Shown: in pieces, positions 1 to 15,403 of the stretch
Layout: each line of letters begins with the position of its first letter
Numbering within the stretch: position 1 is the first letter of the stretch
NCBI GenBank assembly: GCA_964458565.1
Contig: CAYWJO010000064.1
Coordinates: 1 to 15,403 of the forward strand
Reading direction: 5' to 3'
DNA: 15,403 nucleotides
DNA from: an uncultured archaeon
Lineage (GTDB): Archaea > Asgardarchaeota > Thorarchaeia > Thorarchaeales > Thorarchaeaceae
Position numbers and translations under genes: made by a program
The notes under the pieces: model-generated
Told to the model about the DNA's origin: nothing
Database searches by the model: none
What the model saw: the letters and a program-made list of their open reading frames with translations, nothing else

Positions 1-72
1 TCGCTTCACGGACTCGTCTAAGCGAACACCGTGTAGAAGGCTGGCGCCCTATCCGGGCTAGGCAACGGGCCC
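1..72 (-). tRNA. tRNA-Arg(UCU) with 32-nt BHB intron at 37/38; cut by the window edge (possibly the intact gene)
   Basis: Reverse complement of 72..34 = GGGCCCG TT GCCT AGCCCGGATA GGGC G CCAGC CT TCT A (acceptor 5' strand, D-arm with GG, anticodon stem, U33, anticodon TCT at 37..35, A37). Intron 33..2 = CACGGTGTTCGCTTAGACGAGTCCGTGAAGCG forms a BHB: CTTC/GAAG central helix, 3-nt bulges TA|C and CG|A, outer helix ACGG/CCGT. Confidence 0.9.
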
Positions 73-102
73 TTAGTGCTTCGCATTGCGTTTTTGGTCA
101 TG

Positions 103-126
103 TTTGACTTAAAGAGTCTTCGATAA
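103..126 (-). promoter_or_regulatory. Putative tRNA promoter (BRE + TATA TTTAAG), copy 1
   Basis: 24-mer TTTGACTTAAAGAGTCTTCGATAA is identical in all four repeats; on the minus strand it reads CGAAGACTC-TTTAAG about 35 nt upstream of tRNA G1. Confidence 0.7.
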
Positions 127-370
127 TAATCCATTTTCCCAATTTGGGTTAGCAAACTCAAATCGTTGCGTAGTAAGCAGACTAAAAGTGTGACTTGCAT
201 AGTACCTAGAGTTGCTGGAGTATATGAGCGAGAACACAAGTGTCAGAATGAAGTTGTCATCATCATCTGTGCACTATTTTCTTTCTTCTTCGTAAATTAG
301 TTGCATTATTTTCCATTTTTATCAATCAAGGTACGCATATTTTATTTTAATAATAAAAAAAAAAAAACAG

Positions 371-386
371 TTGAACTTATATTCAA
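371..386 (+). promoter_or_regulatory. Putative TATA box inside a palindrome, TTGAA-CTTATA-TTCAA
   Basis: About 38 nt upstream of ATG 420; identical at 5158-5173; followed by SD-like GGAGTG. Confidence 0.55.
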
Positions 387-419
387 AAGACATTATATTA
401 TCTTGGAGTGTAGTGAGAA

Positions 420-2717
420 ATGAGACGAACCTCTAAGAGAATTGCTGTGTCATTACTATCCGTAGTAATCCTTGTGTCTTTGAACATCACATCGGTATCT
501 GCCAGTTATGAGCAACTTACCGAGATCTCTGCCAACCCAATCAAGGTGATAGGGTCGCAACGTAACTTCACAGAGAACATCATGAATGTATACATCTGGA
601 TAGAAAATTGTCTCGATCAACCAATCATGGTCAAGGGAAACCTATCAGTACCAGATACCTTCGAGCTAGGTCTTGAGCGTGAGAATGGAATCGATTTCGA
701 TAAGGAAGGAAATATTCAGTTCTGGTCAGTGCTAAAGCCGAAGGATGTAAAATCCTCGGAAGAACCATTCAAGCTTGTAACAGATGAGATCTTCTTCATC
801 GAGCCCACTCAATTTCGCATAACTCTAGAATGGGCATATGTCAATGGGAGAGAGATTGATTGGCATAAGGTCACAGAGATCATTTATCCCGCCCGAGATA
901 CAAATTCTGATTCAGGTGATGGTGGACTACTCCGTGCTACCTTTGGTGTAGATTCGGTATCAGTCTCAGGAGAATCGACGAACAGTGACAAGGGTACTCC
1001 AATCCATTTTGTGGTGACATTCATCAACTGGGGAACTACATCTACTGGTACATTATATGTGAACATCAAGATAAGCGAGGACTCAAACTTATACCTTGGT
1101 TTCGATCAAGGTGTCTGGGCTTTCTCTGGGAATGGAAAGAACACTGGGAAATCCTTGCGTGCACCACGTTGGTATGAAGACTTTGTTCTTGGGACATATC
1201 ATCTGTATCTGGGTCCATATCTGACTGACGATGATAGAGGAATCTGGGCTCTCAATGGGATGACCCGAGTGAATGGGACATGTGTTCCGGAACCCTTGGG
1301 ATATAAAGGAACACGGGCAACCTGTTGGAGTGCAACAAAGGGAGCCGGAAATTCGGAGACTGGCACATGGAATTTCAATGTCAATGACACTGGAGATCAT
1401 GACATCTTTGTTGCAACAATAAGGGACAATTACTGGGCAGAGATGAGTTCCTATTCAGATGAAACTGAGTTCTTTGAATTTGCTGTTAATTATCCTATGG
1501 TGATTGGCTATGGGATAGACAACGATAGTGATGAAAGCAGCTTTGCAGACTGGTTTGATTTCACGTTCCATACAAAACATATCGACACATTGACATGGGA
1601 TGATGATGCCATAAACATAGATTCTTCTGATTTGAGACCAGAAGCCAAATTTCGGACTGCTGATTTGCTAGGAAACACACTGGGGATTGGTTCTGCAATG
1701 TGCTCAGCTCATCTTGACAATGGTGATGTGTCTACTCATCCAACAGGAGAAACATTCACCATGAGAGAGAATCATGGATTCGATATTGGATTTATAGGTA
1801 TCCCCAAGATTGGAGTGGGAGGTGTAAATCTTTCAAGAGGCACAGGGGCTGTATGGACAGTTGATGCAGCAATTGCTATCGCCATGGTGAATCCTGAACT
1901 ATCTCTTTATTTCAACCAGACTATAGGGAAGACCATTCATGAATTGACTCACCTCTTCAGTGGTATCCATCTGAATTCCACGGAGCTTGGCTATGCATGT
2001 ATCATGGCTGCAAATAACACACATGGTGATCACACAGGCAAGCACCAACTCAGAATGAGCACATTGACTGAAGGAAATATCTCACTCTCGTACAATCTAT
2101 TACAATTTGCAGGTGCTGCACGTCCCATGACTATTGCCAGTCAGAAATACGGGCAATGGGGTTGTCATGCGTTCTTCATGTTCACATCACCAACTTCTCC
2201 TATACAATACATGGACAACCCAGGTGGACCAAACGAATACTTTTGGGAGTATACCGGATGGTATGATTATTTCAACGTGGCAAATCAACGTAGTATGACC
2301 AATACCACTGCTGACAACAACGATGTCAATGAGTCCTACTATTATGTGGGGTATAAGCTCTATTTCAATTCAACTTTCTGGCCTACAGGATTCGATTCCA
2401 GTTCAACACAGCTGAAAGTGAACTTCAAAATGGAGGTTTCAGCGATAGCAGATAGTATTCAATATCGCTATGCATATGTGCGTCTCCTTGATGATGATAC
2501 TCAAAATCCATCCTCCCTTGGAGAGTGGTCATATGATTTTGCAAACAATGGCGACGTTGAAAAGCACACCGAGGTGAGTTCAGCATTCACTGATACTGAT
2601 ACAACTGTCTGGTTGCTGATTGGGCTTGAGGATGATACTTCGGATGACTATCACCAACAGGTGTATACATGGATAAAATGGATGGACATGCTCTATGAAT
2701 ATGGATATACACCCTAA
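420..2717 (+). CDS. Secreted zinc metalloprotease-like protein (metzincin-type)
   Basis: 765-aa ORF; signal peptide ending VSA; HELTHLFSGIH (three-His metzincin spacing, nt 1938-1970) followed by a CIM Met-turn-like motif (1998-2006). Confidence 0.7.
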   Translation: MRRTSKRIAVSLLSVVILVSLNITSVSASYEQLTEISANPIKVIGSQRNFTENIMNVYIWIENCLDQPIMVKGNLSVPDTFELGLERENGIDFDKEGNIQFWSVLKPKDVKSSEEPFKLVTDEIFFIEPTQFRITLEWAYVNGREIDWHKVTEIIYPARDTNSDSGDGGLLRATFGVDSVSVSGESTNSDKGTPIHFVVTFINWGTTSTGTLYVNIKISEDSNLYLGFDQGVWAFSGNGKNTGKSLRAPRWYEDFVLGTYHLYLGPYLTDDDRGIWALNGMTRVNGTCVPEPLGYKGTRATCWSATKGAGNSETGTWNFNVNDTGDHDIFVATIRDNYWAEMSSYSDETEFFEFAVNYPMVIGYGIDNDSDESSFADWFDFTFHTKHIDTLTWDDDAINIDSSDLRPEAKFRTADLLGNTLGIGSAMCSAHLDNGDVSTHPTGETFTMRENHGFDIGFIGIPKIGVGGVNLSRGTGAVWTVDAAIAIAMVNPELSLYFNQTIGKTIHELTHLFSGIHLNSTELGYACIMAANNTHGDHTGKHQLRMSTLTEGNISLSYNLLQFAGAARPMTIASQKYGQWGCHAFFMFTSPTSPIQYMDNPGGPNEYFWEYTGWYDYFNVANQRSMTNTTADNNDVNESYYYVGYKLYFNSTFWPTGFDSSSTQLKVNFKMEVSAIADSIQYRYAYVRLLDDDTQNPSSLGEWSYDFANNGDVEKHTEVSSAFTDTDTTVWLLIGLEDDTSDDYHQQVYTWIKWMDMLYEYGYTP

Positions 2718-2819
2718 TTCCAAGTTAAGGGTGCATCATCATCAAATCCTTTATCTCGTTTTTATCCGAGATTTTCCAGATGATATTGCCTTTCTAATGC
2801 GAACGGAGATGAAAACGCG

Positions 2820-4718
2820 TTGAGGATTAAATGTGCTATCTTAACCATCGCACTTCTACTTGGAGTACTACTCACAGTTTCAGATTGCACTGGATATCAT
2901 TTTGAGTTTCTTGAATCCGATCAATGTACTTATAGTATGATGGCTTATCAAATCCATCCCAAGTATACTAATGTTTCTGATAGCCTTTTGTACTCAACCC
3001 TCATTGGAGGAAACAGGGACGAATCTATAAGTTCAGTCTGTGTTGTACAAGGTGATGAAGTCTATATTGCAGGACCCACAGGCTCTCTTGATTTTCCCAG
3101 AAATATAGATGAATACGGATATCCGAATGGTAGCTATATGCCTTCGCAATCGGATTGTTTTATTCTAAAGATGAATCATTCAGGGCTTGTCTTCGCTGCA
3201 TTTGTTGGTGGTACTGGAAATGACTATCCATATGATATAGTCTTAGATGGAAAAGGAAACATCTATGTGACTGGTTCTACATGGTCAAGTAATTTTCCAG
3301 CAACAACATCCTTTGGTGACTGGCAAGTTGGGATTGACTGTTTTGTCTTCAAGCTGAGTCCGAATGGTGATAAACTCCTCTATTCAACGGTCATCAGGGG
3401 TAACAATGAAGAGCGTGCTATGGCCATTGATGTTGATGATGCGGGATGTGCCTACATCACAGGTTATACATTCTCACGTGACTTTCCTATGGCAGATGCT
3501 TTAGATGACTCGTACGGCGGAAATAGACTGACTGATTGCTTCATCACAAAGCTGAACCCTACTGGTGATGAGATTCTCTACTCGACATATTTTGGGGGTT
3601 ATGGAGGGGAACAGGGGAACAGTATCTTAGTTAACGAGCAGGGTTATATCTACATAGGGGGATTCACTACCTTTGATATTCCCTTGGTAAATGCGTTCGA
3701 CGACACATATGGAGGTCATCGGGATGGGTTCGTTGCAAAATTGACTCCATCAGGTGATGACGTGGTATTCAGCACCTATCTGGGAGGGTCAGGTCGAGAT
3801 TATGTACAAGACATCGATGTTGATGTAGAAGGGAATGTATATGCTACAGGATATACTGACTCGATTGATTTTCCCTTACATAATGCCTACGACTCCGAAA
3901 TTGATAATGATCAGTGTTTTGTCCTAGGGCTCAACAGTACGGGAAACGGACTTCTGTATAGCACCTATCTGGGTGGTTCAAGTGAAGACATAGGTCAGTC
4001 TATCCGGGTAGATGCGGGTGGTTATACCTATGTGGCAGGAGAGACCAGATCATCAGATTTTCCAACCTTATTGGCGTATGATAACACATCCAATGGAGGT
4101 GTGGACTCTTTTGTTTCTAGGTTTTCTCCTGAAGGTGACAAGCTCATGTACTCTACGTTTGTTGGAGGGTCTGGTAATGATTGGACCCGCGGACTTGCTA
4201 TTGACGAGTATGGAACCGCATATGTGTGTGGGTTCACAATATCTTCAGACTTCCCTCTAGTCAATCCACTTGATTCCGTTCTAAATGGAAGTGATGACGG
4301 TTTCTTGTACAAACTCGCAGACTTTAGTGACAGTGACAATGACACTCTGAGTGAATATCAGGAATCACTCTATGGCACCAATCGTTTTTCAGCTGACACT
4401 GATAATGACACTCTCGGTGATGCAGAAGAGATCTTTCTATATGGTACTTCACCATTGCTTGCTGATAGCGATAATGACACCTACGATGATGCGTGGGAGA
4501 TAAAATACGGATTCAACCCGTTGGACCCACTGGAACCAATGAGGACAATACAGTCACAGCAACTCATTCTGATGAGTGCTGCTGTCATGGTAGTATCCAT
4601 TCTTATTACTGCTGTACTCATACTTTGGCACCGCGCAAGAAGAGCGAGGATGAAAAAGGAAGAACTGGAGTCTGAGGAGAGAGAGGCAATACATGGTCTG
4701 GTAGGTGATGAGAACTAA
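2820..4718 (+). CDS. Membrane-anchored SBBP (beta-propeller) repeat protein with DxDxD Ca-binding-like repeats
   Basis: TTG start; N-terminal hydrophobic signal; about 7 repeats of YSTYLGGSGxD...I.VD..G..YV.G.T.S.DFP; DSDNDTL-type repeats; C-terminal TM followed by a basic then acidic tail. Confidence 0.85.
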   Translation: MRIKCAILTIALLLGVLLTVSDCTGYHFEFLESDQCTYSMMAYQIHPKYTNVSDSLLYSTLIGGNRDESISSVCVVQGDEVYIAGPTGSLDFPRNIDEYGYPNGSYMPSQSDCFILKMNHSGLVFAAFVGGTGNDYPYDIVLDGKGNIYVTGSTWSSNFPATTSFGDWQVGIDCFVFKLSPNGDKLLYSTVIRGNNEERAMAIDVDDAGCAYITGYTFSRDFPMADALDDSYGGNRLTDCFITKLNPTGDEILYSTYFGGYGGEQGNSILVNEQGYIYIGGFTTFDIPLVNAFDDTYGGHRDGFVAKLTPSGDDVVFSTYLGGSGRDYVQDIDVDVEGNVYATGYTDSIDFPLHNAYDSEIDNDQCFVLGLNSTGNGLLYSTYLGGSSEDIGQSIRVDAGGYTYVAGETRSSDFPTLLAYDNTSNGGVDSFVSRFSPEGDKLMYSTFVGGSGNDWTRGLAIDEYGTAYVCGFTISSDFPLVNPLDSVLNGSDDGFLYKLADFSDSDNDTLSEYQESLYGTNRFSADTDNDTLGDAEEIFLYGTSPLLADSDNDTYDDAWEIKYGFNPLDPLEPMRTIQSQQLILMSAAVMVVSILITAVLILWHRARRARMKKEELESEEREAIHGLVGDEN

Positions 4719-4776
4719 GGTATTCAGCTCACCGCTACTAATGTCCGAGGCGTGCAGACTAAAAGTGTGGCACGCA

Positions 4777-4860
4777 CGAACTCCAACTCGCTTCACGGAT
4801 TCGTCTAAACGAACTCCAACTTAGAAGGCTGGCGCCCTATCCGGGCTAGGCAACGGGCCC
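4777..4860 (-). pseudogene. tRNA-Arg(UCU) 5' fragment, chimeric (intronless junction + partial intron + duplicated 3'-exon piece)
   Basis: 5' exon 4860..4822 identical to copy 1; then AGTTGGAGTTCG (4821..4810), 21 nt of intron 3' part (4809..4789), AGTTGGAGTTCG again (4788..4777); no T-loop or acceptor 3' strand follows. Confidence 0.85.
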
Positions 4861-4889
4861 TTGATGTATCGTATAGCGTTTTGCTCTTA

Positions 4890-4913
4890 TTTGACTTAAA
4901 GAGTCTTCGATAA
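4890..4913 (-). promoter_or_regulatory. Putative tRNA promoter, copy 2
   Basis: Same invariant 24-mer as 103-126. Confidence 0.7.
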
Positions 4914-5157
4914 AACAGGCATGACTCACTATTTGGGTTAGCAAACTCAAATCGTTGTGTAGGATGCAGGCTAAAAGTGTGGCTCGTTCAGAATCCAGAG
5001 TTGTCAGGAGTATATGACCGAGAACGCGAGTGTTTGAGTAGAGTTGTCATCATCTGTGGACTATTTTCTTTCTTCTTTGTATATTATTTGCATACTTTTC
5101 CAATCTTGCCCATCAAAACACGCATGCCGTCTTTTACTTTAATAATAAAAAAAACAG

Positions 5158-5173
5158 TTGAACTTATATTCAA
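5158..5173 (+). promoter_or_regulatory. Putative TATA box inside a palindrome, TTGAA-CTTATA-TTCAA
   Basis: Identical to 371-386, at the same distance from the start codon. Confidence 0.55.
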
Positions 5174-5206
5174 GGGATATTATATTATCTTGGAGTGTAG
5201 TGAGGA

Positions 5207-7282
5207 ATGAGACGAAACTCTAGGAAAATATGTGTGCTACTACTTACTGTAGTAGTCTTTGTGTCAATGAATGTCATGTCGGTATCAGCCAGCTCTATAA
5301 GACCTGGTGAAAATGGATTATCTTCTCCTCAGGTTGATGAATCCATTGATTGGGAAATGATTCCCGACCCTCGTGTGGAGGCTGAAGTCTTAGCTCAGGG
5401 TGAAAAGACGCCTCAGAATGTGCCAGACGCTCCGCGATTGTTCTGGGATGAAGACCTTGGTCGCTGTTATATCAGTACAAACATCCCATGGGATATTTTA
5501 CAGGCTGCAGGTATCAGTCTGGAGGGCAGTTCTATTGAAGAGCGAATTCCCAATGCACCAAGATTTGAGGATGTCTATGATAGGATTCAGAGGATACAAT
5601 CGCTTTCAAATGCGAAATATCCGCGTACATTGTTATATGACCCTGTAGTTGTGATCTGGGTCACTGTACCTGCTATATGGAGCACTGGTGAAGATATCGA
5701 GATCAAGTTCAAGATGTTCAATGAGGGGTACCAGACTGCAACCGCATCCTGTCATTTCTATGGCTATGACAATAGTACTGGGTCTGATGAAGTGGAGTTC
5801 AGTGTAAGTGGGTCCGTCAATATACCCGGTGAATCTTATGGATACAAGACACTGACTGTGGAGATTCCTGAGGAATCAGTGGGGATTAAGCGTGGAATTG
5901 CCACAGCAACAGAAGATGCATCCTACAGTGAGGATATGGGATATGTCTTTGTGCAGAAATTTGGTGAGTTGGATGCGAGTGACCTTCCTGAGGATGATAG
6001 GATGTCATATACTTCAGGTAACGATAATTATTACTGGGAGGGTCTATCAGATATAGATGGATTCAATGTTCAGGTAAATTATTCAAGATATCATCCGTAT
6101 GCATGGAATATCACATGGCTTGCTGGTTGCCTGATAGATACTGAAAATGTTTCTACAATTGATAATGCTGCAGAGTACTTGACAAATGCGACAAATCAAA
6201 AGATGACATATGATTCTAAAGATGACGGGATAATAGACTATTCCCATAGTTCACACTGGTCTGACTTCAAGATTATGAGTGAGAACTTTACTGGTGTGTG
6301 TGATGAGTTTGCCTGTCTTGAAGTATCATTCCTTCGAAGTCTGGGTATCCCTTGTAGACAGATCGGTGGTTCAAGACAGGGCGGGGGTCATAGCTGGCTT
6401 GAATATTGGGGTCAGTTGAACGGTGATTGGTCGTGGATTCATGCAGATCCTACATGGAACAAATATAATCTACCAGCTGGTATCAAGAATCTGAACTATA
6501 CGAACATCAATCTCTATTCATACTGGAATGACAGTTCATATTCAGGTGGCACCATAGATGGTAATTCCACCAATAGAAGACTTGTAAAAAATGATGCAAA
6601 ATACAGTGTTTCATATGATGGACCAAATGACTTTGGTTATGCCTTCATAGATATTTGCGAGGACACACTCTCATGGACATACGATGGAAGTTGGCCAAAC
6701 CCAATATTCTCCATTGGAACTGGAACCCTATATACATCTAATGGGTATCTCAGAGCAGTACCAACTAATCAGGACGGTACAGGACCATTCTATTACCGAG
6801 AACTTGACAATGCTCTTGATATCTATGATTTCAGGAAATTAGAAATTGAAGTTTCATTCAATAATCCCTCTGACTCGTACAAGGGGTGTTTCGCTGTTGC
6901 ACTCTATGACTACTATAAGGAATTCATCTGCTATGTTATTCTCTATGAGTGGAGGGGTGCTCAAGTTGATATGGACTTCTATACAAGATGGTATCTTGAT
7001 AATGGCACAACCAGCAACTATAACGAGTTTGACTATCAGGGAGCCTCATGGCGAGGGATCATCGAGATATACCGAAACGAGACAAGTGGACCCTATGGTA
7101 ACTATTCTGGAGGAATATGGTCATATATCGAGGGATTTGGATATCAGCAGCTCTTCTCAGAATCGGATATTCAGGGTGACCAACGAGAGATCTGTTATAT
7201 TGGCATCCAGTGGAGAAGAGGTTCGGATACATTTCTGAATTACTATCTTCATGATGTTAGGGTATGGGAGTTCACCAGATGA
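5207..7282 (+). CDS. Secreted transglutaminase-like (Cys-His-Asp) domain protein
   Basis: 691 aa; signal peptide; GVCDEFA...LRSLGIPCR...GHSWLE...WIHADPTW (Cys codon 6299, Asp codon 6446) matches the transglutaminase-like core pattern. Confidence 0.85.
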   Translation: MRRNSRKICVLLLTVVVFVSMNVMSVSASSIRPGENGLSSPQVDESIDWEMIPDPRVEAEVLAQGEKTPQNVPDAPRLFWDEDLGRCYISTNIPWDILQAAGISLEGSSIEERIPNAPRFEDVYDRIQRIQSLSNAKYPRTLLYDPVVVIWVTVPAIWSTGEDIEIKFKMFNEGYQTATASCHFYGYDNSTGSDEVEFSVSGSVNIPGESYGYKTLTVEIPEESVGIKRGIATATEDASYSEDMGYVFVQKFGELDASDLPEDDRMSYTSGNDNYYWEGLSDIDGFNVQVNYSRYHPYAWNITWLAGCLIDTENVSTIDNAAEYLTNATNQKMTYDSKDDGIIDYSHSSHWSDFKIMSENFTGVCDEFACLEVSFLRSLGIPCRQIGGSRQGGGHSWLEYWGQLNGDWSWIHADPTWNKYNLPAGIKNLNYTNINLYSYWNDSSYSGGTIDGNSTNRRLVKNDAKYSVSYDGPNDFGYAFIDICEDTLSWTYDGSWPNPIFSIGTGTLYTSNGYLRAVPTNQDGTGPFYYRELDNALDIYDFRKLEIEVSFNNPSDSYKGCFAVALYDYYKEFICYVILYEWRGAQVDMDFYTRWYLDNGTTSNYNEFDYQGASWRGIIEIYRNETSGPYGNYSGGIWSYIEGFGYQQLFSESDIQGDQREICYIGIQWRRGSDTFLNYYLHDVRVWEFTR

Positions 7283-7362
7283 TTTCACAAAGACGTAGAT
7301 TCCTCATTATTGGAGGAATATCTCACATCCACTTGTGATAAATTCTAAATACAAGTCATGAA

Positions 7363-10341
7363 ATGATTACGGGGAGCGATAGAATGGTAATCAATATGTC
7401 AAGAATGAATGAGCGATTGTGGGGATTCTCACTGTTCTTCATATTGGTTCTTCTTCCACATGGCGTATTTCCTAATGTAAATTCTAACGTTAGTCAGGCA
7501 GATGGAGCATCCCAAAATGATGAGTCATTCCAACCATCCATTACACAGGCACTCGACAATGCAGCTCGCTCATTCTTTGTAGAGAACGTGGGGCAAATAA
7601 ACTCCTCCTCAGTGTTATTTTATGGCTATATAGATACATTCTATGTCAGCCTTGGTAATGATGGAATCCAGCTGTACGAATTATCTACAGGCAGGACTCT
7701 CAAGTTAGAGTTTGTTAACTCTCAGGGTCTCGTACTTCACGCATTGGACGCTATGGATGTGAAGTACAATTTCTTTCTTGGTTCAAGGGGAGAATATATT
7801 GATGTAATGTGTTATTCTCATATTTCGTACAAGAATGTCTGGCCGCATATCAATCTCAATATTCGATTGATTGAAAATAGAGTCGAATACGAGTACATTG
7901 TTCGACCGGGAGGAAATGTATCAGACATACAAATTAAGATTATTGAACAAGCGTCTATACCATTCGAAAAGAACGAGATAGAGATAGGTTTGAAAGAACG
8001 CCAAATCGTTGAGGGTTATACTATAGGCAATCAGAAGAATCAACAGATACAGATAGATTTTGTACAGGAGGATATTGATATCTATAGTCTTCAAGTGTAT
8101 GATTATGATTGCTCTTCCACACTTATCATTGATTGTCTGATATATTCTACATATATTGGTGGTTCTGAGATTGATATTGGGAGAGATATTGCAGTCGATA
8201 AGGAGGGAAATATCTATATTACTGGTCGAACAAGTTCGACGAACTTTCCAATCCAAAATGCATATGATTCCACCTATAATGCTGGAACTGCATCTATTAC
8301 GTATGACTGTTTCATATCGAAGATTGATTCTTCGGGAGCGATAGTCTATTCTACATATGTGGGTGGTTTATTTTGGGAGGAAGGAAATGGAATCGCCGTC
8401 GATGACGAGGGAATTGCATATGTCACAGGTGGAACAAGGTCCATTGACTTTCCAACTGTGAATGGGTATGATGAGAGTTTCGGTGGTGGTTCCTATGACT
8501 GTTTCATCCTAATCCTCAATGCAACGGGAAATGGATTAGTTTATTCGACATATTTAGGTGGGGCGTTTTCAGACATGGGCCAGGATATTATAATCGATGG
8601 CGTATCTAATATTTTCATTTCTGGCAGAACTGCATCAAGTTCATTTCCTACTGTCAATGCATATGATGACACCTGGAATGATGGCTATGACTGTTTTGTA
8701 TCGAAGATGAACTCTACAGGTACGGGTCTAATATATTCAACCTATGTGGGTGGAACATTTTCATACACTCCCCCCTATGATGATCGTGATGATGTTGCAG
8801 TAGCTTTGGCAGTTGACACTTTTGGGAATGCCTATGTTTCAGGCTACACGAACTCGTTGTATTTTCCCACTGTCAATGCGTATGATGACACTCTGGGCTC
8901 GTGGAATACCGAGGATTGTTTTGTCTTCAAGCTGAATGCCACCGGCAATGGTCTCATATATTCCACCTACATTGGTGGTACGGGACAGGACCAAGCCACA
9001 GATATTACCATCGATGCTGAGGGATGCGCCTACATCACAGGCCTCACGCAGTCTACAGACTTTCCACTGGTTGGTGCACTTGATTCGACTCTCAATGGCA
9101 CATCGGACTCATTTCTCGTCAAACTCTCTCCAGAAGGAGATCAGCTCCTCTATTCCACCCTTCTGGGTGGAAATGACACCGACTCGGGGCAGTCATTGAT
9201 GTGTGATGCCCTGAACAACATCTATCTTGGCGGTACCACCACTTCGCCAGACTTTCCTGTGGTCAATGGTGTTGAGTATGATGGAAACGGGAGTGCAGAC
9301 TGTTTTGTACTCAAGCTGAACATCACCGCAAACAGCATCATGTACTCAACATGTATGGGAGGTACTATGGATGACTCCCTGTTATCCCTCGTTATCGATT
9401 CTTACGGGACAGTCTATGCCACTGGTAGTACTTATTCCGACGATTTTCCCATGGTTGACCCCTATGATGACACTCAAAACGGAGAGAGTGATGTCTTTGT
9501 GTTCCTGCTTCCAGATTTTGGAGACTCGGATTCAGATGGCATACCGGACTATAATGAGTCTCTCTATGGCACTGACAGGTTCTTAGCTGACTCAGATTTT
9601 GATGGGCTCGGAGACTTCGATGAGATTTTCACGTATCTCACCAATCCGCTCTCGAATGACAGTGACTCTGATGCTCTTGATGACTTTTCAGAGGTCATGG
9701 TCTACCTCACAAATCCATTGAATAACGATTCTGACTCGGACTTCATGAGTGATGGCTGGGAGGTCCTGTACACACTAGACCCACTAGACCCGACTGATGC
9801 TGGCCTGGATTTAGATAATGACACACTCTTGAACCTCGGTGAGTATCAGCATGGTACGCTTCCTGACAACTGGGACACTGACTCTGATTTGATGAGCGAT
9901 GGATGGGAGGTACAATATGGACTGAATCCCCTGGACCCGACTGATGCCACAGGTGATCTTGATGCAGACTTCCTCACGAACTTGCAAGAATATGAGCTTG
10001 GTACAAATCCACGCTCAAGCGATAGTGATCTTGATGGGATTCCAGACAACTGGGAGGTCTCCATGGGATTCGACCCTCTCGATCCCACTGTCCCCCTCAT
10101 AGAATATCTCCTGTACAACCTTCACATCACAATCCTTGTGAGCGTTTTTATTGTAGGTGTTTGTGTTGGGCTCATCTACCGTCTTCGACCCCGTCTGGAG
10201 CGTCGAAAGATGAGGAAGGAACAGGAAGAAGAACACAAGGAGATCGAGGAGGGTATCAGGGATCTGGGAGGGCATGATACAAGAGATACACAGAATGGCA
10301 TAGATGACAGGGAGAACGGTGGAGATACCAAAAAACCCTAG
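7363..10341 (+). CDS. Large membrane-anchored SBBP beta-propeller repeat protein with many DxDxD repeats
   Basis: 992 aa (true start may be a later Met); N-terminal FVENVGQ-type domain typical of SBBP proteins; about 7 SBBP repeats; multiple DSDxDGxxDxxE...GxxP repeats; C-terminal TM and charged tail. Confidence 0.85.
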   Translation: MITGSDRMVINMSRMNERLWGFSLFFILVLLPHGVFPNVNSNVSQADGASQNDESFQPSITQALDNAARSFFVENVGQINSSSVLFYGYIDTFYVSLGNDGIQLYELSTGRTLKLEFVNSQGLVLHALDAMDVKYNFFLGSRGEYIDVMCYSHISYKNVWPHINLNIRLIENRVEYEYIVRPGGNVSDIQIKIIEQASIPFEKNEIEIGLKERQIVEGYTIGNQKNQQIQIDFVQEDIDIYSLQVYDYDCSSTLIIDCLIYSTYIGGSEIDIGRDIAVDKEGNIYITGRTSSTNFPIQNAYDSTYNAGTASITYDCFISKIDSSGAIVYSTYVGGLFWEEGNGIAVDDEGIAYVTGGTRSIDFPTVNGYDESFGGGSYDCFILILNATGNGLVYSTYLGGAFSDMGQDIIIDGVSNIFISGRTASSSFPTVNAYDDTWNDGYDCFVSKMNSTGTGLIYSTYVGGTFSYTPPYDDRDDVAVALAVDTFGNAYVSGYTNSLYFPTVNAYDDTLGSWNTEDCFVFKLNATGNGLIYSTYIGGTGQDQATDITIDAEGCAYITGLTQSTDFPLVGALDSTLNGTSDSFLVKLSPEGDQLLYSTLLGGNDTDSGQSLMCDALNNIYLGGTTTSPDFPVVNGVEYDGNGSADCFVLKLNITANSIMYSTCMGGTMDDSLLSLVIDSYGTVYATGSTYSDDFPMVDPYDDTQNGESDVFVFLLPDFGDSDSDGIPDYNESLYGTDRFLADSDFDGLGDFDEIFTYLTNPLSNDSDSDALDDFSEVMVYLTNPLNNDSDSDFMSDGWEVLYTLDPLDPTDAGLDLDNDTLLNLGEYQHGTLPDNWDTDSDLMSDGWEVQYGLNPLDPTDATGDLDADFLTNLQEYELGTNPRSSDSDLDGIPDNWEVSMGFDPLDPTVPLIEYLLYNLHITILVSVFIVGVCVGLIYRLRPRLERRKMRKEQEEEHKEIEEGIRDLGGHDTRDTQNGIDDRENGGDTKKP

Positions 10342-10396
10342 TTATAGTGGGATAGTGAGCTGTTATGTATAGAGTAGATTAAAAGTATGGTCCACA

Positions 10397-10447
10397 CGAA
10401 CTCCAACTTAGAAGGCTGGCGCCCTATCCGGGCTAGGCAACGGGCCC
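10397..10447 (-). pseudogene. tRNA-Arg(UCU) 5' fragment, intronless
   Basis: GGGCCCGTTGCCTAGCCCGGATAGGGCGCCAGCCTTCTA|AGTTGGAGTTCG: exact exon-exon junction, anticodon stem CCAGC/GTTGG; ends at the start of the T-stem. Confidence 0.85.
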
Positions 10448-10477
10448 ATAGTGCTTCGCATTGCGTTTTTGGTCGCA

Positions 10478-10501
10478 TTTGACTTAAAGAGTCTTCGATA
10501 A
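10478..10501 (-). promoter_or_regulatory. Putative tRNA promoter, copy 3
   Basis: Same invariant 24-mer. Confidence 0.7.
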
Positions 10502-10763
10502 AACAAATCCCATCCTTAACTTGGATATGGCTTGAGGTGAAGTAAGGAGAAGCCTCAGAACTACATTATATACCCTAATACTAAATCAAGAGGGATTCGA
10601 ACTCTTAAATTGGTCATGAGTGTATTACCTTATGGAAATACAATCCAGCGACTGGATGATAAATCTCATCAGAGGTGTTGCTATTATCTAAAGAGGCAAT
10701 GGTACATTATTTAAAAACAAAGTTTATTAAATAAAATTTGAGGAAATAGAATGGGGATTTGTT

Positions 10764-11588
10764 TTGGAAATGAGAAAGTGGATTAGGTATAGACTTAACA
10801 TACTAAATCTAGAACTTGATGTGTCATGGCCATCCTTTGCAATATCTTCCCTAATCGCATTACTTCTCATCACATATTCTATACTATTATTGAATACCTT
10901 CTCAAGTATTCGTACAGGATTTGGACCTGAAGGTCCCAGTAATATACCAAGAGTTGAATTCTTTGTCAATACACTAAATAGAGATACTATCAATGCTATG
11001 GGTATATCGACTTCCATCATGAATTATCTCATTATTTCAATCATCCCTCTTGTTATGTCAATCACATTTGCCAGTTCTTTTGAAAACGGTAACTTGCGAA
11101 ATTTATTATCAATGCCCATTGCAAGGAAGTCAGTATTCTTCATAAAATTCATCATTCTGTTTTCTGTAATCACCATTCCTTCTGTATTCGGTTTATTAAT
11201 TGGTACTTTTTGGTTTTTGCCAAATTCCGCTTCTCTTAAGATTCATGTATTGCTGAGTATTTCTCTGATATTGGTTATTTTTTTCAATACATCTATTTCT
11301 ATGTTAGTCGCTGTTCAAACAAAAAGTCTGATGAAGAGTACATTTCTGAGTCTTTCGATTTGTTATATCTTATTCTTATCCTCAAGCGCGAATCTAATTC
11401 CAGGACTGATGCTTGGCGTAGTAAATCCAATTCATGCAACCAATATTTACCTGGGAATTTTGCCTACAGTACAGGAATTAACATTAGGTCTTAATTTGTT
11501 ACTTCTTTCATTGGAGGGTTGTCTTGTGATATCTCTTCTGTTGTTGACTGTTTCCGTTATCAGTTTCGATAAGATTGAGATTGAATGA
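10764..11588 (+). CDS. ABC-2 type transporter permease
   Basis: About 6 TM segments; SFENGNLRNLLSMPIARKSVFFIKF motif typical of ABC-2 permeases; likely ATG start at 10770. Confidence 0.8.
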   Translation: MEMRKWIRYRLNILNLELDVSWPSFAISSLIALLLITYSILLLNTFSSIRTGFGPEGPSNIPRVEFFVNTLNRDTINAMGISTSIMNYLIISIIPLVMSITFASSFENGNLRNLLSMPIARKSVFFIKFIILFSVITIPSVFGLLIGTFWFLPNSASLKIHVLLSISLILVIFFNTSISMLVAVQTKSLMKSTFLSLSICYILFLSSSANLIPGLMLGVVNPIHATNIYLGILPTVQELTLGLNLLLLSLEGCLVISLLLLTVSVISFDKIEIE

Positions 11589-11614
11589 GGTGAGAAATAC
11601 TGCGTGCTCTCAAT

Positions 11615-12202
11615 TTGATATTTAGTCTGGGTGTGTCCTTTCTGATTATTTCTATTCTCTATGGTAGTACAGCAATATCTGGAAAGCTGCTTTATCAGGG
11701 AGAATATAGTGGTCACTTTGTAGCTGTGACTGAAGGTGTTCATATCCATGCTTGGGGGCAGGATAATAGAAATTTTACATTATATGTTTTGGATTTTGAT
11801 AATGGGTATAAAGCACTCAATGAGAGTTCACTCGAAAATGTTTCGTATGTGTGCATCTATGAGAATGTGGCTTATATAGAAATCAATGTTTTAGTACCTT
11901 CACCAGGTTGGTATGTGATTCTCGTCACACCATCAAATCCTGATGATTCAGTTATAAGATATGATATCATCATTAGTAGAAATGTCCCTCACCTTGGTCC
12001 ATTCTTTCTAGGTTTATTTCTCGTTCTTGGTTGTATCTTATTCAAAGGAAAAAAAGCTATTTCTGAACGAAATTTGTCCTTAGGGATGCCTCATGTTTTT
12101 GGAAATCAAAAGAAGTCTAAACCTGAGCAGCCAAAGTTGAATCTTATTCTCACCATATCTTATCCGGGTAGAAAAAAGTGTATAGGTGATATCTATGTGT
12201 AA
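11615..12202 (+). CDS. Hypothetical membrane protein (2 TM flanking an extracellular domain); paralog of 13910-14431
   Basis: Hydrophobic segments at the N-terminus and near the C-terminus; NRNFTLYVLDFDNGYKALNESSLENVS resembles NRSFTLYLLDYETGIKTLSEQSLKNVS; start uncertain. Confidence 0.7.
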   Translation: MIFSLGVSFLIISILYGSTAISGKLLYQGEYSGHFVAVTEGVHIHAWGQDNRNFTLYVLDFDNGYKALNESSLENVSYVCIYENVAYIEINVLVPSPGWYVILVTPSNPDDSVIRYDIIISRNVPHLGPFFLGLFLVLGCILFKGKKAISERNLSLGMPHVFGNQKKSKPEQPKLNLILTISYPGRKKCIGDIYV

Positions 12203-13121
12203 TGAAATAATGGTGTCCACAAAAGATCTAGTGAAACGTTTCAATAATATCACAGCTTTGGATAAATTGTCTCTGGAGGTTCCTTCTGGTATATTTGGCT
12301 TAATTGGACCTAATGGGGCAGGAAAGACAACACTCTTTCGTATTCTGATTGGTCTCATCTCTCCAGATGCAGGGACAGCTTATGTATGTGGACAAAATAT
12401 TGACGCACATCTATTAGAAATCAGACAACTAATAGGTGTACTTCATGAGCGTCCAGTATATCCAAAATCTCTTTCCGCAAAGCACTATTTGCAACACGTA
12501 GCAAATCTTTATGGATCCTCAAGTTCTCCGGATGAATATCTTGCATTAGTGGGTTTATCAGAATCAGTAGATAGAAAGATAGGATCTTATTCTGCAGGAA
12601 TGATTCAACGCTTAGGACTTGCTCAGGCACTTATTGGCAAACCAAAACTTGTTCTCCTTGATGAACCAACCTCAAATTTGGATGTTATAGGAAGAGAAGC
12701 CATCTTGAATTTAGTTGTTGACCTTCATCAGAAGTATAAAACATCCTTTCTAATAGCATCGCACATCCTAAGTGATTTGGAAAAAGTATGCACATCTATT
12801 GCCTTTATAAAAAAGGGGAAGGTTATCAAACAGGGAGATATCTTAGATATTGTTTGGAATCAGATGCCAAATGAATTCATCATTGTATTGTCAGATCCAA
12901 CAACATTACAGCAACATATCAAGAATGAGGATGGTATTATTGATACACATATCGCTGGTAGTAGATCATTACTAGTTGAATTAGATGAAGGGTATGAAGT
13001 GCAAGACCTTGAAGATATTGTTTCATTGATTTCAAGTCGTGAAAATATAAAAGTCTATTCAATTGAGAAGCAAAGCTCTCTAGAAGGTACTTTTCGAAGG
13101 GTGATAGAAAATGACTACTAA
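12186..13121 (+). CDS. ABC transporter ATP-binding protein (ABC-2/multidrug-type exporter)
   Basis: Walker A GPNGAGKT, signature YSAGM, Walker B LVLLDEP, H-loop ASH; likely ATG start at 12195 after SD GGTGA. Confidence 0.95.
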   Translation: MISMCNEIMVSTKDLVKRFNNITALDKLSLEVPSGIFGLIGPNGAGKTTLFRILIGLISPDAGTAYVCGQNIDAHLLEIRQLIGVLHERPVYPKSLSAKHYLQHVANLYGSSSSPDEYLALVGLSESVDRKIGSYSAGMIQRLGLAQALIGKPKLVLLDEPTSNLDVIGREAILNLVVDLHQKYKTSFLIASHILSDLEKVCTSIAFIKKGKVIKQGDILDIVWNQMPNEFIIVLSDPTTLQQHIKNEDGIIDTHIAGSRSLLVELDEGYEVQDLEDIVSLISSRENIKVYSIEKQSSLEGTFRRVIENDY

Positions 13122-13929
13122 GCTTCAACGCATGAAATCTCTGGTTAAATTTGAATTAGACGTTTCATTCAAATTTCCTCTACTTGAAATGTTATTTATT
13201 TTCTTTATTGTGATTACTACTGTTGGAGTATACGGTCAATCTCGCACACCTGCATTGTTTATTTTTCCTGGATATGATGTTTCCGAATCTGATGTGGAAT
13301 GGGTTATACAAATCATTGAAGAGATAGATATTCTTCGAGTGTCTGCGCCATTAAATATTATAACACTAATCGTATATTGTATCACGCCGCTTTTAATGTC
13401 ATTTCAAATTGCATATAATATTGAGGTTAATCTATTTAAAAGATATATTTCCTATCCAATCGGACGAAGAACACTAATAGTTTTCAGATTCATAGTTATT
13501 TGGTTTCTCTTTTGCGCTTCAACAACTATAGGGATAATAACTCCTCTCTTTTTCATGGGTGATTTAATCAACCTCGGCGTTATTATTGTCTTGCTCTCCA
13601 CATTTTATTCTACAAGTTTCTTTGTGGTTTCAGCTTCTATTTTAATTGCTGTTGCAACTAGAAAATTTTCATATTCTGTCCTTGGTGGATTGGGTTTGTC
13701 TTCTGTTCTATTAATCGTGAGCTATTTTTCTAGCCAATCATATCTCATTCGAGGAATATGCAATCCAATTTTTCTAGCTTTGGGATTTTTCACAGGTGTA
13801 CCTTTTATTGGAGGCTTTTTTGGAGATATTTTAGTAACAGATGTATTATATAGTATTTTCTTTAATCTCGCATTGGGAATCTGCGTATTCATAATCTCTT
13901 TACTAATAGTTGAAAGGATGGATGTTTAG
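13111..13929 (+). CDS. ABC-2 type transporter permease, paralog of 10764-11588
   Basis: Multi-TM; shares ELDVS, I.PL.MS, P-I-x-R, IAV and NPI motifs with the first permease; overlaps the ATPase stop. Confidence 0.8.
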   Translation: MTTKLQRMKSLVKFELDVSFKFPLLEMLFIFFIVITTVGVYGQSRTPALFIFPGYDVSESDVEWVIQIIEEIDILRVSAPLNIITLIVYCITPLLMSFQIAYNIEVNLFKRYISYPIGRRTLIVFRFIVIWFLFCASTTIGIITPLFFMGDLINLGVIIVLLSTFYSTSFFVVSASILIAVATRKFSYSVLGGLGLSSVLLIVSYFSSQSYLIRGICNPIFLALGFFTGVPFIGGFFGDILVTDVLYSIFFNLALGICVFIISLLIVERMDV

Positions 13930-14431
13930 AATGAATCAAATGAGAACCCAGAAATTCCTCATCATATTTGGAATTACTCTGATTGCACTATCTTATTCAG
14001 CAGTTGTGATTGATTCTTCAAAATCCTTATACATTCAAATTGATGAAGTTGGAGTTTATGAGGGCTTCTTTTTTGAATGTACTAGTATAGAACACATCAA
14101 AGTAACTGAGATAATGAATAGGAGCTTTACACTTTATCTACTTGACTATGAAACTGGAATAAAAACGCTATCTGAGCAGTCACTCAAGAATGTGAGTGTT
14201 CTAGAGTATCATATTGATATAATATCATATGAAGGTGATATTAGCGGTTTAGAAAACCGTTGGCTATCAATCCTGTTAACATTAGGCAATTCAACAGAAG
14301 AGATCCTATGTTATCTAACGATCACAACGAAAGGTCCAGAAATAGGATTGTTTGTTTCTGGTCTTCTATTATCTTCTATTGGACTGGTATGGATAACATA
14401 TGATTACTTTAACAATATAAAAATATATTAG
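13910..14431 (+). CDS. Hypothetical membrane protein (2 TM); paralog of 11615-12202
   Basis: Shared FTLY.LD...G.K.L.E.SL.NVS motif; likely ATG start at 13931 or 13940. Confidence 0.7.
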   Translation: MKGWMFRMNQMRTQKFLIIFGITLIALSYSAVVIDSSKSLYIQIDEVGVYEGFFFECTSIEHIKVTEIMNRSFTLYLLDYETGIKTLSEQSLKNVSVLEYHIDIISYEGDISGLENRWLSILLTLGNSTEEILCYLTITTKGPEIGLFVSGLLLSSIGLVWITYDYFNNIKIY

Positions 14432-14502
14432 TAATACTTTTAAATAATTGATGATATAACCAATTGTACAATATCCTGAATATTGTATAATGAGGTATTA
14501 TA

Positions 14503-15144
14503 ATGTGGTTAAGGAGACTTAAACTCATTTTAGTTATTCTTCTAGCTTTTGGAATGATAATACCAAATGTGTCAGCTTACACATTTACACAAGATGACGA
14601 CTCTGACTATTCTGTTGCGAATGGAGTTTATTCAATCTGGGCATTTGCTGTACGAAGCTGCAATTATGATACGGGTTTAATTGAGGTCATGGGTGCGTGG
14701 GCGAGTGCCAGTTTGCATTATGCCAAGCTGTATATTGGAATGGCTTTCACGGCACCAATATCTGGAAGAGTTCATTGCTCTGCAAAATGGACATTGAATT
14801 ATAAAATTATGGCTGGATTGAATGAGGGTGGTTATGCCAGATTATACATTCGTTACTATCTGCTATCCATTACTCAAAATGAGCTTGAATTTAAGAAGAA
14901 CATATACAAAGATACTGTTACATATGAATCTGGAGGTTATGAAACATCATCGGGCATTATCACTGAAGATGGTAGTAGCAGTGTTTATTGGGATTATCCA
15001 TTGTCAGTAAATACAACTTACTATGCAGCAGTAATGATCTACATAAAATTGTACTATGGTGGCTATGCATTCAGTCAAACAGGTACAATAATTTCCCCTA
15101 CCTATGTTTCTCTTGATGTAAGCGAAATAAATGTCTGGTCCTGA
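14503..15144 (+). CDS. Small secreted hypothetical protein
   Basis: 213 aa; signal peptide ending NVSA; SD-like GAGGT upstream; Tyr/beta-rich mature part. Confidence 0.7.
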   Translation: MWLRRLKLILVILLAFGMIIPNVSAYTFTQDDDSDYSVANGVYSIWAFAVRSCNYDTGLIEVMGAWASASLHYAKLYIGMAFTAPISGRVHCSAKWTLNYKIMAGLNEGGYARLYIRYYLLSITQNELEFKKNIYKDTVTYESGGYETSSGIITEDGSSSVYWDYPLSVNTTYYAAVMIYIKLYYGGYAFSQTGTIISPTYVSLDVSEINVWS

Positions 15145-15165
15145 AGAATAAATATTGACAACAAA

Positions 15166-15203
15166 GAAAGGCTGAGAAAACTCAACCTTTCCTATCTTTT
15201 TTT
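15166..15203 (+). terminator. Hairpin plus T-tract, putative terminator
   Basis: GAAAGG-C-TGAG-AAAA-CTCA-A-CCTTTC followed by T7 (15197-15203), just after the last gene. Confidence 0.55.
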
Positions 15204-15245
15204 AAGTTGTTAATTATTATCTCTCTTACTATGAATGATTTCAAT

Positions 15246-15328
15246 CGAACTCCAACTCGCTTCACGGATTCACCTAAGCGAACACCGTGTAGAAGACTGG
15301 TGCCCTATCCGAGCTAGGCAACGGGCCC
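15246..15328 (-). pseudogene. tRNA-Arg(UCU) 5' fragment with 32-nt BHB intron
   Basis: 5' exon 15328..15290 (3 substitutions vs copy 1), intron 15289..15258 with intact BHB, AGTTGGAGTTCG 15257..15246, then unrelated AT-rich sequence. Confidence 0.85.
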
Positions 15329-15358
15329 TTAGTGCTTCGCATTGCGTGTTTGGTCGTG

Positions 15359-15382
15359 TTTGACTTAAAGAGTCTTCGATAA
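15359..15382 (-). promoter_or_regulatory. Putative tRNA promoter, copy 4
   Basis: Same invariant 24-mer. Confidence 0.7.
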
Positions 15383-15403
15383 AACAATCGATTGGATTTT
15401 TGG

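Follow-up and report, generated by a model that had tools for sequence, protein, structure and literature searches.

An intron-free copy of the 5′ part of tRNA-Arg(UCU) lies at positions 10397–10447 of a 15,403-bp stretch of Thorarchaeota DNA. The copy is real, yet it is a truncated and non-functional leftover, located at the junction between inserted blocks of genes. It is probably an attachment-type relic in which the absence of the intron reflects a natural intron-free allele; most relatives are naturally without the intron, so that what the copy preserves is most likely an ordinary form of the gene without it. The stretch analysed, referred to below as the window, is the entire contig C64 of the MAG G000 (3.73 Mb, 93 contigs, 41% GC), and the public runs that hold this contig are salt-marsh metagenomes.

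Partial copies of tRNA-Arg(UCU) in the window

The window contains four same-strand copies of a repeat unit, which consists of approximately 62 nt of upstream sequence and tRNA positions 1 to 48/49:

Copy 1, positions 1–126, minus strand: promoter, exon (72–34), 32-nt bulge-helix-bulge (BHB) intron (33–2) and A38 at window position 1.
Copy 2, positions 4777–4917, minus strand: promoter about 20% diverged, identical exon (4860–4822), hybrid ‘intron’, truncated.
Copy 3, positions 10397–10447, minus strand: exon at 10447–10409 (tRNA positions 1–37), then AGTTGGAGTTCG at 10408–10397 (tRNA positions 38–49).
Copy 3 upstream block, positions 10448–10506, minus strand: includes the 24-nt promoter block TTATCGAAGACTCTTTAAGTCAAA, invariant in the alignment of the four copies.
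Copy 4, positions 15246–15387, minus strand: outermost fragment, adjoining the conserved chromosomal flank and truncated after AGTTGGAGTTCG.

The minus-strand sequence from 10447 to 10409 is the 39-nt 5′ exon of tRNA-Arg(UCU), and the same sequence occurs at 72–34 and at 4860–4822. In copy 3, A37 abuts AGTTGGAGTTCG; the intron between positions 37 and 38 (the 37/38 intron) is absent, the tRNA sequence is cut after position 48/49, and non-tRNA sequence lies beyond. A 40-nt pattern made of the 5′ exon and A38 is found on the minus strand with 0 mismatches at 4821–4860 and 10408–10447, and at 33–72 with a single mismatch, which is the first base of the intron; the pattern had no match in 200 shuffles. 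Removal of the 32-nt intron from copy 1 produces exactly the junction of copy 3, and no alternative register fits. The preliminary description had claimed that copy 3 joins A37 directly to A38, as at the spliced junction, and that its 5′ exon is the same as in copies 1 and 2. Both claims hold, the first by the pattern search and by agreement of two further samples, the second by 39 identical nucleotides.

The two further samples, X2 and X3, are salt-marsh samples other than the original one. In each of them a Logan contig (k=31) runs with 0 mismatches from unique DNA of the neighbouring gene block (cassette B, see below) across the A37/A38 junction into the exon; these are record 15 of X2, covering 9724–10424, and record 21 of X3, covering 9508–10421. 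A collapsed assembly, with the intron still present in the reads, is therefore not what the data show, as the contigs of both samples bridge the intronless junction. The k=31 contigs stop within the 39-nt exon repeat, and the linkage of the copy 3 junction to its promoter thus rests on the original assembly (k≥55) only.

Copy 1 is the 5′ portion of the functional gene; the contig ends at A38, and the remainder is on contig C87. The hybrid region of copy 2 consists of CCTTCTA, AGTTGGAGTTCG (4821–4810), 21 nt of the 3′ part of the intron (4809–4789) and a second AGTTGGAGTTCG (4788–4777), and this hybrid ‘intron’ does not fold as a BHB. In copy 4 the exon (15328–15290) carries three substitutions and the intron (15289–15258) is present, with three differences from that of copy 1; the upstream flank of this copy overlaps contig C32, on the side of the ribosomal protein operon, and is orthologous to the flank in L112, a JGI contig from the closest relative.

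ARAGORN found no complete tRNA in the window, and there was no Rfam tRNA hit at E≤1. The ‘intron-containing siblings’ of the preliminary description are therefore one functional gene (copy 1 together with C87) and three truncated fragments; the intron is indeed present in copy 1 and partial or hybrid in copy 2, but no copy in the window is a complete tRNA. The base that follows AGTTGGAGTTC is A in the functional gene and G in copies 2, 3 and 4, after which the sequence is unrelated, identifying these three as fragments cut at position 48/49. All three end at GAGTTC followed by this G and diverge beyond it. Copy 3 does not correspond to the 5′ half of a split tRNA gene, as it passes position 37 and continues to 48/49, and a full gene is present at the same locus.

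The functional gene and its introns

The first 55 nt of C64 are the last 55 nt of C87, and the last 55 nt of C64 are the first 55 nt of C32. The join between C87 and C64 is proven by L113, a JGI metagenome contig from the same organism, which spans C87 1738–3930 and C64 1–507 at 99.8–99.9%. The rest of the gene is positioned as follows:

G000 contig C87, positions 3930–3790, minus strand: remainder of the functional gene, continuing from window position 1.

Together, C64 and C87 give a 140-nt pre-tRNA-Arg(UCU), which folds as a cloverleaf with two introns, one at 37/38 and the other, of about 30 nt, in the T-loop (at approximately 58/59). The T-stem of the gene (ACGTG/CACGT) is unusual, and the CCA is encoded. 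The 37/38 intron of copies 1 and 4 forms a canonical bulge-helix-bulge, with a 4-bp CTTC/GAAG helix, 3-nt bulges and an outer ACGG/CCGT pairing; the splice sites lie inside the bulges, between TA and C and between CG and A. The T-loop introns of the G000 gene and of its relative L112 both contain AGAGAGTTCCTCTGG.

An insertion upstream of the working gene

C32 begins with orf100, a histone-deacetylase-family (HDAC) gene and the L12/L10/L1/L11/NusG operon, and C87 carries a 271-aa unknown gene, a radical-SAM gene and an AIR-synthase-related gene. The order of the locus is L12, HDAC, orf100, tRNA-Arg(UCU) and radical SAM in nine related genomes. Among 86 genomes of the family, four TCT copies are present in G000 alone and one in the others, with a second TCT copy, at a contig end, in two family genomes. 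L112, the flanking genes of which have about 72% nucleotide identity to those of G000, carries a single tRNA-Arg(UCU) at the same locus, with an empty site and the same promoter block; no tRNA-fragment repeats were found on it. The L112 gene contains the 37/38 intron and a T-loop intron homologous to that of G000. The conserved synteny and the single TCT copy in relatives indicate that the 15.3 kb between copies 4 and 1 are an insertion. This island, which lies upstream of the working gene, comprises three blocks, all transcribed opposite to the tRNA:

Cassette C, positions 127–4776, plus strand: a 765-aa secreted protein and a 632-aa SBBP beta-propeller protein.
Cassette B, positions 4918–10375, plus strand: a 691-aa transglutaminase-like secreted protein and a 992-aa SBBP/DUF7948 protein.
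Cassette A, positions 10507–15245, plus strand: an ABC-transporter gene cluster, with ends unlike those of B and C and unrelated to them.

The island has several of the properties of an att-type duplication: direct repeats of a tRNA part bound the insert, one of the repeats lies within an intact gene, and the site is empty in relatives. No match to the integrase families PF00589, PF16795 or PF00239 was found in the window, in C87 or at the start of C32; the island and its flanks contain no mobile-element gene of any sort, and the ORFs of blocks A, B and C include no recombinase or reverse transcriptase. The MAG as a whole has one tyrosine recombinase, on the distant contig C53 in a housekeeping-looking context; searches of it for serine recombinases, SSV-type integrases and RVT_1 gave no match. 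Joints that skip a cassette, or excised forms, were not found in the contigs of four runs, where the k=31 contigs cannot cross the 39-nt repeat. Viral contigs held no exact match to the intronless junction.

In L112, variable genes are present on both sides of the tRNA, with two unknown ORFs upstream (1287–2669) and a GNAT acetyltransferase downstream (3132–3617); in this relative, as in G000, the locus is a hot spot.

The first genes of cassettes B and C share a leader and signal peptide region that is about 80% identical in nucleotides (420–505 vs 5207–5292). The 29-aa signal peptides have 62% amino acid identity, and the mature parts are unrelated; the second genes of the two cassettes encode SBBP propeller proteins with 38% identity. 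Each cassette has a paralogue of 67–78% nucleotide identity elsewhere in the MAG, that of cassette A being at C7 31715–36282. For the first gene of cassette B, the nearest homologue is the in-genome paralogue on C7 (64% amino acid identity), while the rest of the family reaches at most 41%, and on this basis a recent import of cassette B from another sampled genus was rejected.

Several further features were observed in and around the cassettes. The paralogue of cassette B (at the end of G000 contig C60 and at C7 1–5556) is flanked by 56-nt direct repeats (C7 71–126 and 5501–5556) that are 96% identical. This paralogue adjoins a tRNA-like stump, GGGGACGTGGCCTAGTCCGG fused to GTTCAAATC, which is not called by ARAGORN. 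Close to the beginning of cassette A and some 80 nt from copy 3, the minus strand of 10583–10602 reads AAGAGTTCGAATCCCTCTT and resembles a T-arm, with a TTCGAAT loop motif; it is possibly a relic of the 3′ part of another tRNA. A C/D-box snoRNA model (SNORD72) gives an Rfam match of 28.8 bits (E 0.97) at 15105–15182 (plus strand), where UGAUGU and CUGA boxes are present and the final part of the last cassette A ORF is overlapped; this weak match is probably due to chance. A BLAST search for other partial-tRNA arrays with the 32-nt ends of ARAGORN-called tRNAs, which leave out the many multi-intron tRNAs that ARAGORN does not call, returned only cross-hits between related tRNAs.

Repeats of the 23S rRNA 3′ end

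A motif of 16–18 bp (GCAGACTAAAAGTGTG and adjoining bases) lies beside copies 2 and 3. It is part of a larger conserved unit, which is 85–95% conserved in 61 of the 86 family genomes. In Rfam, this unit aligns with the final 113 positions of archaeal LSU rRNA (LSU_rRNA_archaea, E 3e-19, for the copy at the end of contig C1), and a copy in another genome forms one uninterrupted stretch with 570 nt of 23S rRNA. By this alignment, window positions 4718–4760 are the last 43 nt of 23S rRNA and 4761–4777 are the 3′ trailer; cassette C thus closes with a 60-nt 23S 3′ end and trailer (4718–4777). Trailer-like sequence also opens cassette C (177–290) and cassette B (4966–5080). The element beside copy 3 is:

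Positions 10376–10396, plus strand: degenerate 23S 3′ end/trailer junction (AGATTAAAAGTATGGTCCACA) of this repeat family, adjoining copy 3 and the end of cassette B.

This flank of copy 3 matches the unit at only about 73%, as compared with 98% identity for the flank of copy 2. The remainder of the 23S gene is absent from the G000 bin: a whole-genome Rfam search of G000 returned nothing for LSU rRNA, although cmscan applied to the end of C1 does give a match.

Partial 23S ends were also observed on G000 contig C1 (at about 13314, 246007, 249535, 250395 and 255054), between blocks of approximately 4.5 kb. In other genera, copies of 65–96 nt of the 23S 3′ end and trailer are found 0.7–4 kb apart, between small cassettes that carry LRR proteins, an esterase, a HepT toxin and an M28 peptidase. 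The loci examined were L120 (G070 contig C33, 2514–7419), L121 (G098 contig C233, 87–4271), L122, L123 and L124, and no recombinase was present among ten ORFs scanned in L120 and L121. These cassettes look like a widespread and undescribed array tied to the end of an rRNA gene.

Two other readings of the inter-cassette sequence were rejected. The unit is not an integron-like attC site, as it has no fold above that of shuffled sequences (z from +1.6 to −0.7) and is the 23S 3′ end. The second concerns the bases that follow GTTC, which are GTGCG in copy 2 and GTGTG in copy 3; these could be taken for T-stem strands of foreign origin, since the variants occur only in genera g4 and g6. On the tRNA strand, however, the trailer unit itself contains ACTGTGCGAGCCACAC and ACTGTGCGAGCC, and the T-stem argument is therefore withdrawn. 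The GTGCG and GTGTG of copies 2 and 3 may be derived from the trailer or may reflect a shared microhomology.

The promoter block and the source lineage

The 24-nt block TTATCGAAGACTCTTTAAGTCAAA, at window positions 10483–10506 in copy 3, is invariant in the four copies and in L112, and about 12 of the next 30 alignment columns vary. The promoter region of other family members contains CGGAAAGCTTTATGAC instead. When JGI metagenomes were scanned with TTATCGAAGACTCTTTAAGTCAAA, two contigs only were recovered, L113 from the same organism and L112 from the relative. It may be that the fragments are transcribed antisense into the cassettes, or that the 24-nt block is a recognition site.

The common lineage-specific promoter, together with the in-genome paralogues of the cargo, points to a source within a narrow lineage rather than to a distant host. 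Judged from these sequences, copy 3 would derive from a close relative or from an earlier state of the resident gene. The upstream blocks of the copies differ from each other by 4–20%. In copy 2, the upstream region is about 20% diverged from copy 1 and the 39-nt exon is identical, which fits with time spent in a working gene or with a constrained attachment sequence.

Intron status in related genes

Across 67 species of the family, the 37/38 intron of tRNA-Arg(UCU) is absent from 41 and present in 26. Both states occur within single genera (14 species without and six with the intron in g6; one without and two with it in g12). Introns have been gained or lost independently at three sites in the family, namely the D-loop (20/21), the anticodon loop (37/38) and the T-loop (loci L032–L105), and some genes (G013, G014) have all three together. 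The exact intronless junction, CCAGCCTTCTAAGTTGGAGTTCG, is present in complete genes of seven GTDB Thorarchaeota MAGs, and exact matches to the tRNA junction are limited to Thorarchaeota MAGs. Copy 3 (10393–10447) is identical to the exons of the G056 gene at 55 of 55 positions. The same salt-marsh samples also contain other populations with complete tRNA-Arg(UCU) genes that are intron-free, seen as loose ends at 10395. As most of the related genes lack the 37/38 intron, the ‘precisely spliced’ junction is simply their native sequence.

The preliminary description had suggested, as one of three routes, that the sequence came from a host with an intronless tRNA-Arg. The survey supports the intronless source, by the 41 intron-free species and the 55/55 match; the notion of traffic from a distant host is not supported, in view of the lineage-specific promoter and the in-genome cargo paralogue.

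Origin of copy 3

With a natural intron-free allele as the source, the promoter and the first 48/49 nt of tRNA-Arg(UCU) would have been left at the boundary of two gene blocks, the blocks having been added successively just upstream of the working gene. The source allele would have been without the 37/38 intron at the time of copying; it could have been the resident gene at an earlier time, or a tRNA-like attachment sequence carried by the incoming block, in a family where this intron appears to come and go rapidly. Entry of the blocks would have been by site-specific recombination with a breakpoint at 48/49, through a recombinase that acted in trans or has since been lost. The G000 gene, the L112 gene and copy 4 all have the 37/38 intron, so that for this lineage itself the intron-free allele is one that we infer rather than observe.

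A one-step integration was considered, with the crossover placed at the left edge, in the anticodon loop or at GTTCG, and was rejected because none of these reproduces copies 1, 2 and 3 together. Even copies 2 and 3 by themselves would call for an additional step in any single integration scheme. As none of several single-crossover schemes yields the three copies, no order of events is given.

Copy 2 has the sequence of an intron-free copy as far as GTTCG and then continues with the intron from its own GTTCG onward; the start of the intron, CACGGTGTTCG, matches GGAGTTCG at 7 of 8 positions. Copy 2 is best read as a recombinant of intron-free and intron-bearing copies or as the product of a template switch. 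As a recombinant it would be a later product, joined at the shared GTTCG, and this reading presupposes an intron-free parent.

An origin within the chromosome, with no mobile elements involved, appears less likely but retains some weight, and is not exclusive of an intron-free source. Here, unequal crossing-over or microhomology duplication would have joined the tRNA at about 48/49 to the 23S-trailer-like units of an existing array, and copy 3 would be a fossil of the resident gene before it gained its intron. The lack of a recombinase or other mobile-element gene agrees with this, as does the fact that the best homologues of the cargo are paralogues in the same genome and that all copies have the lineage-specific promoter block. 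Copies 2 and 3 are moreover fused to the 23S 3′ end/trailer, which also separates cassettes on C1; in other genera 23S ends separate cassettes with no tRNA piece noted, at loci that were not scanned systematically for tRNAs. The GTGCG of the trailer is the same as a T-stem strand of natural tRNA-Arg alleles, providing 5 nt of microhomology. However, the unrelated ends and cargo of cassette A mean that at least two kinds of event would be needed, and three breakpoints at the same tRNA position are more typical of a site-specific enzyme. The upstream divergence of 4–20% next to identical exons also fits with evolution in separate functional contexts.

Deletion in place is a further conceivable origin of copy 3, and we regard it as unlikely. 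Slippage or recombination between the 12-bp repeats (AGTTGGAGTTCG) of a hybrid resembling copy 2 would remove 33 nt and leave the copy 3 junction. Copy 2 has exactly the repeat structure required, and the repeats are 21 nt apart, which makes the step mechanistically easy; the arms of B and C are homologous on both sides, so that the att fragments could have a common ancestor. Against this, copies 2 and 3 differ by about 10–12% in the upstream block and also in the first bases after GTTCG, and the 23S-end flank of copy 3 is old and degenerate in comparison with that of copy 2. The perfect 12/12 repeat of copy 2, beside a promoter that is about 20% diverged, suggests that the hybrid is young, and the hybrid would itself require an intron-free parent or an exon duplication.

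Reverse transcription of a spliced tRNA, followed by recombination back into DNA, had been proposed on the strength of the junction being exactly the spliced one, and is very improbable. Neither the MAG, which is 93% complete, nor the ORFs of the window have an RVT_1 match, so that the reverse transcriptase looked for near the locus was not found; copy 3 retains about 62 nt of untranscribed promoter and ends at 48/49, without the 3′ half or CCA, and the same junction is native in most related genes. It is hardly conceivable that copy 3 is an assembly artefact (a collapse of intron-bearing reads, or a chimera with the intron-free gene of another organism), for although the contig ends in repeats, the exon is a 39-nt exact repeat and the same samples hold other Thorarchaeota with intron-free genes, the k=31 contigs of two further samples link unique cassette B DNA to the junction with 0 mismatches, and the junction of copy 3 is followed by cassette-specific sequence and not by a T-arm.

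Possible intron remodelling and the idea of protection by introns

The duplicated segment includes the 37/38 intron in copies 1 and 4, and copies 2, 3 and 4 break 3′ of the intron position. The 37/38 intron was thus no obstacle to the events by which the array arose. The idea that tRNA introns block integration, on which copy 3 had been thought to bear, is accordingly not borne out for this intron: the intron-bearing copies 1 and 4 flank inserts, and the breaks at 48/49 are on its 3′ side. The T-loop intron, which lies about ten nt 3′ of the breakpoint, gives a weak hint of intron blocking.

The first 11 nt of the 37/38 intron (CACGGTGTTCG) resemble a decayed version of exon positions 38–49 (AGTTGGAGTTCG), which is undecayed in copy 2, and the other 21 nt share homology with the shorter L112 intron (GTTTAGA...GAATC...GAAG). 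An att fragment ending at 48/49 could have been fused into an older intron and then reshaped so as to restore the BHB. It is conceivable, though rather improbable, that the four copies are a fossil series of intron remodelling by attachment-site recombination.

Comparison with known systems

A similar arrangement has been described for tRNA-Thr(GGU) of Caldiarchaeum subterraneum, where a 5′ fragment precedes the full gene (Sugahara et al. 2012, PLoS One 7:e32504, PMC3293823). The fragment has one intron and the gene two, and the 1.8-kb insert contains a putative recombinase (PMC3293823). Sugahara et al. proposed that introns are transferred when attP and attB sites differing by an intron recombine; they discussed this as a way for introns to be gained and as support for the idea that att sites are protected by introns (PMC3293823). 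In both cases, a 5′ tRNA fragment forms a direct repeat around an insert and differs from the gene in intron content. The present locus differs in that its three blocks, each approximately 5 kb long, contain no recombinase and its four copies represent three states (intron, hybrid and none); it belongs to an Asgard (Thorarchaeota) lineage, and its fragments are fused to copies of the 23S rRNA 3′ end. It is a further and richer case of the Caldiarchaeum kind, in an Asgard lineage.

Archaeal integrative elements that target tRNA genes, of the pNOB8 and SSV types, encode tyrosine integrases (PMC8371274). As in these elements and in CIME-like arrays, partial tRNA repeats bound the insert and one repeat reconstitutes the gene. 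The tandem blocks on one target resemble CIME-like accretion without an integrase, in which decayed or integrase-less units are common. In contrast with the pNOB8- and SSV-type elements, no integrase or remnant of one was detected here, the repeat is the 5′ part of the gene with its promoter (about 110–140 nt) rather than the usual 3′ part, and the cargo is paralogous to chromosomal clusters instead of being viral or plasmid-like.

Integrons have an IntI integrase, an adjacent attI site and attC hairpin sites between the cassettes; archaeal integrons were reportedly described in 2022. The present array shares with them cassettes in the same orientation, a recurring short site between cassettes and the lack of a recombinase inside the cassettes. 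Unlike in integrons, there is no IntI-type gene nearby, the sites are pieces of RNA genes without a hairpin fold above shuffled sequences, and the cassettes contain several genes with their own leaders.

Randau and Soll are said to have put forward, in 2008, the hypothesis that integration is hindered by introns in tRNA genes and by the splitting of such genes. The locus sets intron-bearing beside intron-free attachment sequences of one and the same tRNA; inserted blocks are flanked by copies 1 and 4 as well, although these bear the intron.

The intron-free state of copy 3 requires no exotic mechanism. Three states of an attachment sequence beside a two-intron gene, together with the turnover of introns within genera, make the locus a natural setting well suited to testing two long-standing ideas, that the gain and loss of tRNA introns are driven by mobile DNA and that introns shield tRNA genes from integration. 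The first is supported here only as a possibility; shielding by the 37/38 intron finds no support from the locus. If the remodelling reading is true, the locus would hold a direct sequence record of mobile-DNA recombination building archaeal tRNA introns, and would be part of a wider Thorarchaeota system, so far undescribed, in which cassettes without a recombinase are exchanged at the ends of structural RNA genes, the 5′ part of a tRNA and the 3′ end of 23S rRNA.
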